Source of the DNA: an uncultured delta proteobacterium
GTDB lineage: Bacteria; Desulfobacterota; Syntrophobacteria; BM002
NCBI GenBank assembly: GCA_963712115.1
Contig: CAVQGX010000030.1
Coordinates: 96,001-160,000 of the forward strand
DNA length: 64,000 nt
Direction of reading: 5' to 3'
Shown here: in pieces, positions 3,355 through 46,910 of the stretch
Layout: each line of letters starts with the position of its first letter
Numbering within the stretch: position 1 is the stretch's first letter
The notes under the pieces: model-generated
Seen by the model: only the letters and a program-made list of their open reading frames with translations
Database searches by the model: none
What the model was told of the DNA's origin: nothing
Made by a program: the position numbers and the translations under genes

Positions 3355-3740
3355 CTCATAGTAAAGAAGTTGATTAGTCAAATCGTCAAATCGTCGAATA
3401 GTCAATTCGTTCAAATCGTTGAAGCCGTTCAAATCGTTTAAGTCGTTAAAGCCGTTGAAATCGTTGAAACCGTTCAGGTGGTTAATTAGTTAATTAGTCG
3501 ATTAGTCAATTCGTTCAAATCGTTAATTCGTCATTGAGGCCATTCATAACCATTTGACTATTCGACAAATTGACGATTTGACTTGCTGCCCTCTGACCGC
3601 TGACCTCCGACTTCTGACTTCTGTTTTCCTTCGTCTGTCTTCTACCTTTTACAACAAATGACAGCGCAGCGTAGTGACCTAATGACGCCGAAGGCAAATG
3701 ACTGTTCTGTCTTCTGCCCCCGTCTCGCTCTTCTCGCATT
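3352..3740. repeat. Composite intergenic short-repeat array (8-mer AATTAGTC, 9-mer ATCGTTCAA, 7-mer CTCTGAC, GTCTCGC) with a 63-bp dispersed core
   Basis: Read directly; 3467-3624 is the reverse complement of 8776-8933; 3641-3703 is the reverse complement of 11256-11318 and 15489-15551. Confidence 0.9.
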
Positions 3741-13338: not shown

Positions 13339-13580
13339 ACACCAAAGTTTAAGAGGACAGAAGACAGAAGACAGAAGACAGAAGTCAGAGGTCAGAGGTC
13401 AGAGATCAGTGAGTTATAGGCTGATCTTTTGCGTATAACGAATAACGGATAACGGATAACGGATAACATCTCATACCGCTCACTGCTCACCGCTACCGCT
13501 TACCATAAGGACTACCTCTTGAATCAATTGTAACACCTATGCTACTTAGGATGGACACTATAGTGAAAAGGAAGTGCTAA

Positions 13581-15428: not shown

Positions 15429-15730
15429 CACGCAGAGCTCTCGGGGCATAGAGTAAGAAATCAGGGGTCGGGGGTTAGAAGACAGAGCAGTCATTTGCCT
15501 TCGGCGTCATTAGGTCACTACGCTGCGCTGTCATTTGTTGTAAAAGGTAGAAGACAGAGGGCAGAGGACAGACGACAGAAGTCAGAGGTCGGAGATCAGA
15601 GGTCGGAGATCAGAGGTCGGAGATCAGAGGTCGGAGATCAGAGGTCAGAGATCCTAAGTTAGAGATTAACGAATAACGAATAACAAATAACATCTCATAC
15701 CGCTCACTGCTTACCGCTTACTGCTTACAA
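15426..15730. repeat. Composite array with four perfect tandem copies of TCAGAGGTCGGAGA and the 63-bp core
   Basis: 14-bp tandem at about 15582-15651; core at 15489-15551; ATAACGA and CTTACCG arrays follow. Confidence 0.9.
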
Positions 15731-24522: not shown

Positions 24523-24753
24523 CCTTAGGGTTAATTTGTCGATTAGTTAATTAGTTGATTCGTCAATTAGTTGATTAGGGAATTTGATAATTAGTTAAAT
24601 AGTTCCAATACTTAACCGCTTACGGCTTACTGCTTACGGCTTACCAATACCGTTTACCGTTCACCGTTTACGACATAACGACTTCTATGATTTTTACGAC
24701 TTTTACGATCTCCGAACGATTTGACTATTCGACCAATCGACCAATTGACGAAA

Positions 24754-34390: not shown

Positions 34391-34597
34391 ATGATCCTCC
34401 GCTTATGCCTTTCATGTAATTATCACGAAATAAGAGAAGAGCTCGAAACCAGGGTGACCTATTGTCTTAAGGAAAACTGCTGGTCTCAGTACTCGAAGTG
34501 TGTGGCTACAAGAGCCATAGAGCGATTCTTGGAACAAGAGCGCATCGAAGTGCCACCATTCTTTTCGGCCTTATCTCACTTATACAGCGAGTTCTAA
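34391..34597 (+). CDS. Small cysteine-rich hypothetical protein
   Basis: GGAGA RBS; CLSCNYH..YCLKENCWSQYSKC. Confidence 0.65.
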   Translation: MILRLCLSCNYHEIREELETRVTYCLKENCWSQYSKCVATRAIERFLEQERIEVPPFFSALSHLYSEF

Positions 34598-34751
34598 CCT
34601 GATTATTTCCTGTTCTGCCATCTGTCATCCGCCCTCTGCTTTCTGACTTCTGTTCTCTAATCTCTGACCTCTGGTTAAATGAAAAACGGACGACCGTGGT
34701 GTATAAAGGAATTACCGAAAAACCAAAACACACCACAAAGTAGGTCGTCCA

Positions 34752-35804
34752 ATGAAAAAGGTAGCATATCTGGCTATAGATGTACATGCAGGTCACTGTG
34801 TTCTCGGCCACATGGATTTTGATGGAACTTTTATTGGAAACAGAAGATTTCCCACATCCGAGCGACACATTATCCAGGCCCTCAAAGCTGTTAAAGCAAA
34901 GGAGAAGTATCTGGCACTGGAAGAAAGTAACCTTGCCTATTGGGCTGCCCAGGTGGCCAGACCCTATGTAACCGAAGTCATCTCCTCTGATCCCAGGGAG
35001 AACGCCTTGATCTACCGCAGTGCCAACAAGAGAGATAAGGTTGATACCCACAAGTTGTGCCGTCTTCTTAGACTGGGGGAGTTGAACCGGGTTTATCATG
35101 CTGAAAATGATGACCGCGCCATATTTAAGTCGGCGGTTCAACACTATATAGATCTTCGCGATCAGCAGGTGGTGTTGAAGAACAAGATTAAAGCTATGTA
35201 CCGTCACTGGGGTGTTATTGAGGTAACAGGCCAAGCCGTCTATGGCACCAGCCGTGATGATTATCTGCAAAGGGTGAAGCATCTTCATATTCGCAATCAA
35301 CTTCATCGTCTCTATTGTCTAATGGATGAAACCGAGTCCATGCAAAAAAGAGCTCTTAAGGCAATGAAGCAACTCGGGCGTAAATATCCTGAGATCAAAG
35401 AATTCGAAAAGATGCCTGGCATAGGGGAGATTCTTTCCCATATTTTCGATGCCTTCATTCAAACTCCCCACCGCTTTGCTCATAAGCGTAAACTCTGGCG
35501 CTATTGCCGCTTAGGGATCACCGATCGCTCCAGCGACGGTAAACCGCTGGGATTTAAACGGCTGGACAGATCCGGTGTCTCAGAACTCAAAGCCTTGAGC
35601 TATCGAGCATGGCTTGGTGCCATGGGAGGCGATAACGAGGTTAGAAAGTTTTACTCACGCTCCTTGCGGCAGACTCTAAGCCATGTCCATGCCAGACTCA
35701 ATACCCAGCGAAAGATCATTGCCGTCATGTACGGCATGTGGAAAAGAGGAGATGCCTATAGGCCTGAACTGTTCCTGGATTCGCCACAGATGAACGTTGT
35801 CTAA
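34752..35804 (+). CDS. IS110-family transposase/recombinase
   Basis: DEDD RuvC domain (AIDVH, LEES, KRDKVD); PGIG; C-terminal GITDRSSDG serine motif. Confidence 0.9.
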   Translation: MKKVAYLAIDVHAGHCVLGHMDFDGTFIGNRRFPTSERHIIQALKAVKAKEKYLALEESNLAYWAAQVARPYVTEVISSDPRENALIYRSANKRDKVDTHKLCRLLRLGELNRVYHAENDDRAIFKSAVQHYIDLRDQQVVLKNKIKAMYRHWGVIEVTGQAVYGTSRDDYLQRVKHLHIRNQLHRLYCLMDETESMQKRALKAMKQLGRKYPEIKEFEKMPGIGEILSHIFDAFIQTPHRFAHKRKLWRYCRLGITDRSSDGKPLGFKRLDRSGVSELKALSYRAWLGAMGGDNEVRKFYSRSLRQTLSHVHARLNTQRKIIAVMYGMWKRGDAYRPELFLDSPQMNVV

Positions 35805-35809
35805 AGGAG

Positions 35810-36130
35810 ACAGCACCATTAACTGGACTGAAGTGCGCAGACCAGTCCGGCGGATCCGGGTTGCCGGGTGAGTCTCGATCAATAGAAGTCTAGCCACCCC
35901 CGATGCTTCGGGGCGACAGGCTCGACCTCTGGATAGGCCCCCGGCCTTTATACCCAATGTGACCCTAGTCATTTTCCTCTCAGGAAAAACAGACTCATAT
36001 ATGTGACTGGAAAGAACACGGCCCGCACTGTCATGTTGATCCGATCACCCGACTGTGTATGCACACTTCATAAGTTAAGTGATGGTCTGCTCCCACATGG
36101 CCAACAAGGCTCACGGTCGTCCTGTGAAGT
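35810..36130 (+). ncRNA. Candidate bridge/seek RNA in the IS110 3' non-coding region
   Basis: About 380 nt non-coding end; GACCTCTG (35924-35931) equals target-left plus core; ATATGTG (35999-36005) equals donor-left plus core; boundaries are approximate. Confidence 0.5.
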
Positions 36131-36775
36131 CAAAAACTCGATTTCACGGTAATGGATAAGTTTTTCTTTACTTCACTTTTCATATGTGACCTCTGATAAA
36201 AACGACTTCAACGATTTAACTAATTGCCTAGGTAATAGGTGATGGGTTATAGGTTTTTGCCTCTTACCCATGACCTTTTGTTCCTTTCCCGCCTGTCTCG
36301 CATTTTTCGCTTTATACCTACCGCTTACTGCTTACCGCGTAACCTTTACTAATACCTAATAATCTTTTCCCACATCTCTTTTTCCCCACCCTACAGCCGC
36401 AGCAAATCACCCACCTCTGAGCAGCCTTCAATTCCATCCACCGCATAACCCTTAATAAAATCAGTTAGGAAAGCATTTTTACCCATTTTATACCGGGTAT
36501 GTTTTGGGTAAATTTACCCATTTCTTACACGGTAAAAAATGGGTAAATTTGTGATTCAAGGTTTGAGGTAAAGATTTTTTGCTGTTTGCTGCTTAGAGCG
36601 TGTTAATTGTCGTTCATGAGAGGTTAGGAGATTTGTTCTTGAGCGTTGAGCTGTTAGTTGTTAAGGTCAAAACTTCTACAACTTGACCTAATGGGCGACG
36701 TCTATGCTACTATTTGAGATGATACTTATGAGACTTTAAATATCCGCTTACTGCTTATTAGAAAAAGAGGTGAAT

Positions 36776-46378: not shown

Positions 46379-46910
46379 AATTTGTGCCACTGCCCAACGG
46401 GGCATTAGTTTAGAAAGGAACGCGGGTCAGGAGTGTATCTCTCCCCCGCGTTTTTGGTCTCGAGCGCAAGGCGCATGGGCACTTCGCGCGGCAAGGCGGG
46501 AGGTCGGGATTAGCTGGAAAGGCGAAAAAGGGTTATCAGGTTATAGGTGACGGGTGAGAGGTCAGAGATCAGATGTCGGAGGTCAGAAGACAGACGACAG
46601 ATTTCAGCAGGCAGCAGCAGCAGGCAGAAGTCAGAGGACGGAGGTCTGAAGTCACTAGGACAGTTGTTCATAGTTCAGAGCGTTCAAAGTTTAAAGTTAG
46701 AACGAATTATAGGCTGATCTTTTGGGAAGTAACGTATAACAAATAACGAATAACATTTCGTGCGGTTTACCGTTTACCGTTCACGGTTTTACGACTTGAG
46801 CGACTTTAACGATTTCAACGATTTTAACGGTTTAACCGTTGACGGTTTGCTTTGCACCTTTTAAATTCAAACTATCGCCTCAAAGACTTGCACAAGTAGA
46901 GAAACCTTAA

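Follow-up and report, generated by a model that had tools for sequence, protein, structure and literature searches.

The 64 000-nucleotide (nt) stretch of DNA analysed here (the window; positions 96001–160000 of contig C30) contains at 34672–36188 a 1517-bp element with a TG core at either end. This element is very probably an intact and recently active insertion sequence (IS) of the IS110 family with an IS1111-type organisation, in which an RNA encoded 3′ of the transposase gene is programmed against the CTGACCT/GTCAGAG repeat. The 384-nt non-coding region holds an 8-mer that matches the insertion site. By a rough estimate, about 0.1 such matches are expected in a region of this length, and a lone match is weakly significant. 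The weight of the argument therefore comes from a target site common to the genomic copies, the excess of that site in the genome, and the covariation between guides and flanks among relatives.

The genome contains three full copies (99.6–100% identity) with identical open frames of 350 amino acids, and two fragments. All three full copies are within CTGACCT-type arrays at the site GACCTC/TG...TG/ACYTCTG, where slashes mark the borders of the core. The right flanks that follow the TG are ACCTCTG, ACTTCTG and ACCTCTG. The fragment that retains a right end abuts ACTCCTG, which is followed by two ACCTCTG units. In the window, the left junction at 34666–34685 reads GACCTC/TG/GTTAAATGAAAA and the right junction at 36177–36196 reads TTTTCATATG/TG/ACCTCTGA. 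An initial annotation, made from the sequence of the window, had quoted junctions and motif strings that are all found where it placed them. It had also predicted that excision would restore a perfect heptamer array. In-silico removal of the element does keep the 7-nt phase, but the array that results is short and has two exact CTCTGAC units with degenerate neighbours. Insertion is site-specific, both in the genome copies and in relatives, and is accompanied by a shared 2-nt core and no longer target duplication, as in the IS110 family.

Target sites are in ample supply. The genome has 55 occurrences of the 14-nt site GACCTCTGACYTCT and 29 of its all-C form, the latter compared with 0.03 expected from base composition. 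With one mismatch or fewer, the 14-mer is found 31 times in the window (0.04 expected). Perfect period-7 runs of at least three units number 73 genome-wide; the corresponding numbers for periods 5, 6, 8, 9 and 10 are 0–8. Intergenic arrays of periods 7, 8 and 9 are found side by side, with units CTGACCT, TACCGCT, ATAACGA, GTTAATTA, ACGATTTGA and others. Examples in the window are at 3377–3623, 13352–13504, 15549–15728, 24530–24749 and 46553–46848, and Tandem Repeats Finder gives 170 rows. No orthologous empty site was recovered when the flanks were searched in the 17 other genomes of the genus; most matches were repeat noise. The best left-flank orthologue (locus L099) has a different intergenic region, and the right-flank orthologue is on another contig.

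A protein search reveals 1423 proteins at E ≤ 1e-10, and the best 120 show 71–99% identity and are nearly all metagenomic. Three of the 21 other genomes of the order contain a match, and all of these belong to the 17 that represent the same genus. In a sample of 400 other genomes from the phylum, no match reached E ≤ 1e-40, and a plasmid collection yielded a single match, with 21.7% identity. A metagenome scan gave 80 loci with 62–95% amino acid identity, and there are three same-genus loci in addition. The end motifs are conserved in relatives, and both ends and flanks are readable for 68 elements.

Relatives share these ends, and their flanks differ among sublineages. Many of the flanks are short tandem repeats, e.g. 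CTGTCCT, CCTGACA, CGCCTTTG and AACCCTTG, and some sublineages insert at non-repeat sites. Over 62 distinct reconstructed sites, the mean self-identity is 0.38 at period 7, 0.31 at period 8 and 0.23–0.28 at other periods. The element is a well-supported, divergent member of an RNA-guided IS110/IS1111 type that is already known, and it belongs to a deep-branching clade directed largely at 7–8-nt tandem repeats. The initial annotation had suggested a search for CTGACCT flanks around copies and homologues. All three full copies have them; the flanks of relatives differ, but they covary with the guides.

Four segments of the non-coding region are considered as guides, with RT1–7 denoting the right target flank:

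35883–35890, + strand: right-target guide TAGAAGTC, a top-strand complement (reverse complement of core G plus RT1–7); 5′ arm of the target loop

35924–35932, + strand: left-target guide in top-strand sense, made up of GACCTC and core TG (GACCTCTG, 35924–35931), then G, the first base of the left end; 3′ arm of the target loop

35956–35965, + strand: candidate guide for the left IS end, AATGTGACCC, weak; 5′ arm of the donor loop; about 7/10 positions can pair, with no covariation

35999–36007, + strand: donor guide ATATGTG (the final five bases of the right end and the core, 35999–36005), then AC, equal to RT1–2; 3′ arm of the donor loop

In the mechanism proposed, the 3′ non-coding region would encode a structured bridge/seek RNA of approximately 180 nt on the same strand as the gene. 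The 5′ arm of its target loop (35883–35890) would pair with the top strand of the right flank, and the 3′ arm (35924–35931) with the bottom strand of the left flank and core. The 3′ arm of the donor loop (35999–36005) would pair with the bottom strand of the right IS end and core, and the one or two bases after it, which match the start of the right flank, may act like the handshake guides of IS621. The programmed site, GACCTC-TG-ACYTCT, would represent two CTGACCT heptamer units, available dozens of times in the genome. We infer that the RNA is produced and is bound by the recombinase, and that excision releases a circular form with a promoter at its junction; the order of strand exchange, discussed below, is deduced in the same manner.

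Covariation was assessed with 52 distinct loci. Loci L034, L048, L050 and L085 were left out as they carry insertions that disturb the alignment, as were two other copies of this genome, which differ from the window copy only by the two allele substitutions described below. On inspection, L034, L050 and L085 have guides that fit their flanks well, and the left-target guide of L048 matches at only 5/8 positions. The 52 rows comprise 39 different left-target guides and 38 different right-target guides.

The left-target guide matches its cognate flank and core at 6.69 of 8 positions on average, compared with 4.15 for non-cognate pairs, and 0/10000 permutations are as high. At least 7/8 positions match in 31/52 loci, and 8/8 in 13/52. 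Position by position, 35925–35931 equals left-flank bases −5 to −1 and the first core base in 63–95% of sequences. The G that follows the guide always equals the first base of the left end, and neither base varies. The initial assignment of GACCTCTG as the left target plus core is thus borne out.

The right-target guide has a cognate score of 5.12/7 and a non-cognate score of 3.02/7, again with 0/10000 permutations as high; this test took the best of two registers for cognate and non-cognate pairs alike. The guide terminates just 5′ of a conserved TAG, and in some lineages abuts it directly. The window guide pairs fully with the flank of copy 2, ACTTCTG, by six Watson–Crick pairs and one U:G wobble. 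The initial annotation had placed the right-target segment, marked as weak, at GTCA (35968–35971). That candidate is rejected, as GTCA is invariant across differing targets and forms the 5′ strand of stem P5; the guide is at 35883–35890 instead. Among the closest relatives aligned (88–91% amino acid identity), the non-coding region is otherwise conserved but differs in patches at guide positions, and these patches take in both GACCTCTG and ATATGTG.

The donor guide covaries with the right IS end and core, as the reading of ATATGTG in the initial annotation predicts. Its cognate score is 6.77/7 and its non-cognate score 5.85, with 0/10000 permutations as high; it matches at 7/7 positions in 40/52 loci and tracks the right-end variants CATGTG, CATACG and CATATGCG. 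The two bases after the guide match RT1–2 with a score of 0.98/2 compared with 0.52 (0/10000 permutations as high). Position 36006 equals the first right-flank base in 36/52 loci, and 36007 equals the second in 15/52. In 7/52 loci the core is CG, and in each of these both flanks and both guides (target and donor) carry the change together.

These data bear on the possibility that the protein alone picks the target and that the non-coding matches arose by chance or are captured pieces of target. The weak significance of the lone 8-mer match is in its favour, as is the low complexity of tandem-repeat targets. Nevertheless, this explanation is very improbable. None of the 10000 permutations equals the observed value in any of four separate guide covariation tests, and the switch of core from TG to CG is mirrored in both guides. 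In addition, the guides are 180–300 nt inside the element, between conserved covarying stems, and therefore misplaced ends do not explain the matches.

Secondary structural modelling of the 52 sequences (RNAalifold, alignment A2) predicts the following elements:

35850–36026, + strand: candidate bridge/seek RNA core, 177 nt, closed by P0; fold supported by covariation

35850–53/36023–26, + strand: stem P0

35858–61/35952–55, + strand: stem P1′

35863–68/35940–45, + strand: stem P2

35872–75/35935–38, + strand: stem P3

35892–95/35919–22, + strand: stem P4

35967–70/35992–95, + strand: stem P5

35972–76/35984–88, + strand: stem P6

With a target of period 7, the reverse complement of the left-target guide is close to the right-target guide, and this accounts for two predicted pairs between the target guides, which were removed before counting. 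For the 31 pairs that remain, 97.4% of cells are standard pairs and 15/31 pairs show compensatory change. None of 500 shuffles is as good, and sliding the partner by 1–3 columns reduces pairing to 33–51%. Stems P0 and P1′ are conserved without compensatory change and are thus uninformative either way. G:U pairs are frequent, such that only the + strand fits. In the predicted fold, P3 and P4 border an internal loop whose arms are the target guides, and a loop located between P5 and P0 has the donor guide as its 3′ arm. The check by folding and covariation that had been suggested initially therefore places the left-target and donor guides in loops and not in stems. A permissive search of 34400–36500 against Rfam 15 shows no relevant family.

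The remaining features of the element and its flanks are the following:

34659–34671, + strand: left target flank; GACCTC (34666–34671) is the portion read by the left-target guide and precedes all three full genome copies

34672–34673, + strand: left core TG; one of the two core copies is target-derived

34674–34751, + strand: left end, with candidate −10 TTAAAT (34675–34680) and ATGAAAA (34679–34685); end motif kept in relatives

34688–34698, + strand: left arm of the subterminal inverted repeat, GGACGACCGTG, within the left end

34752–35804, + strand: transposase/recombinase gene of the IS110 family, 350 amino acids, with DEDD N-terminal and Transposase_20 C-terminal domains

36112–36122, + strand: right arm of the subterminal inverted repeat, CACGGTCGTCC, which pairs with 34688–34698

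36167–36188, + strand: right terminus, with candidate −35 TTTACT (36167–36172), TTTTCAT (36177–36183), ATG and core TG (36187–36188)

36189–36195, + strand: right target flank ACCTCTG (RT1–7), from the sequence at the junction and the comparison of copies

Several of these properties are those of the IS1111 subgroup. The non-coding sequence is 384 nt downstream of the gene and 78 nt upstream. The subterminal inverted repeat (34688–34698/36112–36122) is perfect and 11 bp in length, within the 7–17 bp of IS1111 elements; its arms are asymmetric, the distance to the IS end being 16 nt on the left and 66 nt on the right. A second repeat of 7 bp, ATGAAAA/TTTTCAT, is nearer the tips. The order of the target guides, with 35883–35890 located 5′ of 35924–35931, puts the top-strand complement first, as in IS1111 seekRNAs. 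Together with matches to both Pfam domains, this organisation and the subterminal repeats uphold the IS110/IS1111 identity first proposed for 34672–36188.

The 350-amino acid protein matches PF01548 (DEDD_Tnp_IS110) at residues 8–149 with 38.3 bits (cut-off 29) and PF02371 (Transposase_20) at residues 218–301 with 33.4 bits (cut-off 21.3). An alignment of 22 relatives shows no variation at residues D10, E57/E58, D95, D98 and S261. The spacing of D10, E57/58, D95 and D98, which are in the N-terminal domain, presumably resembles that of the catalytic residues of IS621, the aligned structure covering the C-terminal half. Indeed, only the C-terminal half aligns by sequence to the IS621 recombinase (PDB 8wt6, E 7e-5), and S261 is opposite the Ser of the IS621 YESG motif. 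The sequence GITDRSSDG at 255–263, compared with the IS1111 motif GL-P----S(t)G, has the Ser and the Gly, no Pro and a shorter spacing. IS621 and ISCro4 are the only solved structures matched in a sequence search. An AlphaFold2 model from the 22-sequence alignment (mean predicted local distance difference test score 51.3, predicted template modelling score 0.32) is too poor for a fold search.

The arrangement of the ends would fit a putative promoter formed on circularization. Once the ends are joined with one core copy, TTTACT and TTAAAT are 17 nt apart; the TTTACT-N17-TTAAAT circle junction predicted initially thus has the right spacing, as far as sequence goes. A promoter-like arrangement is in the same place in 68/68 full elements, with the −35 in the right end and the −10 in the left end. 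The spacer is 17 nt in 64 elements and 16 nt in four, and 37 of the 68 score at least 9/12. A circle-junction promoter has been published for ISEc11 (cited in PMC11187229). A terminator search for the RNA shows terminator-like sites only inside the gene.

A number of observations weigh against the reading given at the outset. The protein scores 82 bits with the NCBIfam IS110 equivalog NF033542, under the cut-off of 140, although the match covers positions 1–341 of the 343 in the model; a match over the full model at such a score indicates a divergent IS110 member. The sequences compared are related, and permutation counts consequently overstate their independence. The right-target guide of the window copy has one mismatch to its own flank, ACCTCTG, and guides in relatives are often imperfect, with 6/8 or fewer matches on the left in 21/52 loci and 4/7 or fewer on the right in 13/52; any such locus represents one observed insertion. 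The junction promoter of the window copy scores 8/12. No sigma-70-like promoter was found inside the linear element, a result that, taken with the junction arrangement, would fit expression from the circle. At the RNA level, metatranscriptome contigs from four runs in four studies cover portions of the element, among them the greater part of the RNA region. In three of these studies the contigs span 35764–36084, 35847–36089 and 35843–36153, and two stop at 36084 and 36089. Such contigs are silent on strand, ends and level, and are not counted as evidence of expression or of a 3′ end. Two further points, a donor-guide allele that does not fit its own right end and the left IS end, are considered next.

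Two guide alleles are found in the genome, distinguished by two linked substitutions: 35887 A>C, which falls in the right-target guide, and 36003 G>C, which falls in the donor guide. The second allele is carried by the copy on contig C47 (G000:C47:2224–3740), where two of three substitutions fall in guides, and by both fragments (C30:230902–231910 and C30:24579–25007). In these three, 36003 G>C makes the donor guide mismatch its own right end. This raises the question of whether the genome copies are now immobile and the guide-like segments are relics. Such an explanation would account for the mismatch between guide and flank in the window copy and for that of the second-allele donor guide, and two truncated copies and a weak window junction promoter also speak for it. 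It is nonetheless unlikely. The three full copies are 99.6–100% identical and have identical open frames, which indicates recent transposition, and single guide mismatches are common at real insertion sites of relatives.

With respect to the left IS end, no covarying guide was found by mutual information, by pairwise comparison of close relatives or by alignment-free longest matches, and the initial annotation, which saw no clear right donor guide, is still correct after these three approaches. The sequences TCATTT (~35969) and TCATAT were tried as left-end guides and rejected; the former belongs to stems P5/P6 and the latter to the donor guide. This opens the possibility of a hybrid recognition, in which the RNA specifies the target and the right IS end, and the protein reads the left end, e.g. 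via a subterminal inverted repeat. A perfect 11-bp repeat of this type exists. The arm at 35956–35965 shows no variation, whereas the left end itself differs among relatives at positions 3 and 5 (GTTAAATG, GTAATATG, GCCAAATG, GCAGCATG and others), and in alignment-free searches the complement of an element's own end never extends beyond 5–7 nt, with pieces that are in stems or in the donor guide. Siddiquee et al. raise the possibility that end recognition differs between the two families (PMC11187229). On the other hand, the arm can still pair at about 7/10 positions with the core and left end, including an uninterrupted ACC that faces the second base of the core and the first two bases of the left end, and in most relatives an ACCA is opposite the whole core. 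It should be pointed out that no covariation can arise in a short invariant guide that reads bases which are themselves constant. IS621 tolerates imperfect donor pairing. Hybrid recognition is thus a possibility to be kept in mind, albeit not the favoured one.

The element can be compared with known systems. IS1111-family seekRNAs are reported to carry the top-strand complement ahead of the bottom-strand complement, opposite to the order in the IS110 type, and to be encoded in a downstream non-coding region (PMC11187229). The window element shares with ISEc11, ISPa11, ISKpn4 and ISPst6, as they are described by Siddiquee et al. (2024; PMC11187229), a downstream non-coding region, subterminal inverted repeats, the order of the arms and a junction promoter, which is putative in the window element. 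Its 350-amino acid transposase is at the upper limit of the 330–350 amino acids given for the IS1111 family (PMC11187229). The target domain (35858–35955, 98 nt) compares with published short seekRNA forms of 82–96 nt, and the 177 nt of 35850–36026 with long forms of 148–172 nt (PMC13604230). The element differs from IS1111 elements in that the target is a 7-nt tandem repeat and not a unique site, a repetitive extragenic palindromic (REP) element or attC, and in its asymmetric inverted-repeat arms; the assignment is by organisation and not by direct sequence comparison to ISEc11 and others.

In both loops of the IS621 RNA, the bottom strand on the left is bound by the 5′ arm and the top strand on the right by the 3′ arm, and two bases beside the 3′ arms, the handshake guides, pair with non-cognate DNA after strand exchange (PMC11208158). 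With IS621 (Durrant et al., 2024, PMC11208160; Hiraizumi et al., 2024, PMC11208158; 8wt6), the window element shares a predicted DEDD plus serine recombinase, a 2-nt core contained in the guides and a repeated host target. Also shared are a two-loop layout, each loop reading both strands of target or donor (the left-end guide of the donor loop being a candidate here), and a handshake-like base beside a guide that covaries with non-cognate DNA. There are also differences. The RNA is 3′ of the gene, whereas that of IS621 is 5′, and its arms come in the opposite order, with the complement of the top strand first, which gives the impression of an RNA inverted with respect to the element. The handshake-like bases come after the arm that reads the bottom strand, and in the predicted fold the target domain is nested within an outer stem that also closes the donor loop. 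Viewed on the other strand, the element would have the IS621 arrangement, and 36006 would be at the donor-loop handshake position.

These comparisons can be brought together in a reading that is tentative and rather speculative. The clade would consist of deep-branching IS1111-like bridge recombinases with dozens of reprogrammed guides, mostly aimed at 7–8-nt repeats, whose RNA mirrors that of IS621. Given the inverted order of the arms, and with handshake bases carried by the arm that reads the bottom strand, strand exchange would start on the opposite strand relative to the gene. The right end alone would be specified by RNA, and the other would be read by protein via the subterminal repeat. 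With a period-7 target the two target guides can pair together, and this pairing could keep the free RNA in a closed form up to its opening by the protein.

The use of an abundant short host repeat as a landing site is shared with IS621, ISPpu9 (REP) and the IS1111-attC group, and such a repeat provides many safe intergenic targets. REP and attC are palindromic stem-loops, whereas the target here is a direct tandem repeat with a 7-nt period, such that the two target guides are largely complementary to each other. The initial proposal that the heptamer arrays are the target is in accord with the common site in 3/3 full copies and at one fragment end, and with guides that covary with flanks. In a literature search confined to a limited library, no paper linking IS110/IS1111 elements with heptamer tandem repeats turned up.

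One of the fragments, C30:24579–25007, is located outside the window in a CTGACCT array. It contains the last 45 nt of the gene, the entire non-coding RNA region and the right end, i.e. an RNA gene without a transposase. As such, it recalls the ssr9-′tnp module of ISPpu9, as described in PMC12288879.

The genome carries 11 other IS110-family transposase genes (contigs C41, C42, C36, C48, C54, C9, C29, C18, C34, C3 and C13). Three multi-copy IS110 lineages among these genes were examined, and heptamer arrays flank none of them. One of these lineages bears ATGAAAAAGC/GCTTTTTCAT subterminal repeats, which are like those of the IS1111 type.

Among relatives, several loci show unusual properties. 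The cores at the two ends differ in L042, L064, L052 and L050 (TG/TA, TT/TG or an extra G), and insertion at a site with a mismatched core or subsequent mutation could produce this. Loci L008, L026 and L027 have the same 16 nt of right flank and different left flanks; the common flank may be part of a larger repeat, or the loci may be recombinant. In L045, a distance of 50 nt separates two right-end motifs, another left end follows after a further 190 nt, and the ‘right flank’ of the first copy resembles its own right end, which suggests insertion beside a partial copy. Insertions of approximately 150 nt that resemble miniature inverted-repeat transposable elements, with long terminal inverted repeats, are found in the distal hairpin loop of the donor loop in three sublineages (L034; L048/L049/L051; L050). 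The elements that carry them keep the target loop intact. L085 has a different insertion, further downstream.

The findings link a mobile element to the short tandem-repeat arrays that fill intergenic regions of a Desulfobacterota genome, and these arrays can act as landing pads. RNA-guided IS110/IS1111 recombinases are under development as genome-editing tools, and the clade offers approximately 40 distinct natural guide pairs with observed sites, a switch of core from TG to CG and a handshake-like position. It also provides a rule set for IS1111-type RNA from a lineage far from those studied. The value of the clade is in an unusually clean comparative record of guide reprogramming, with many tandem-repeat targets and an RNA architecture that is now testable.

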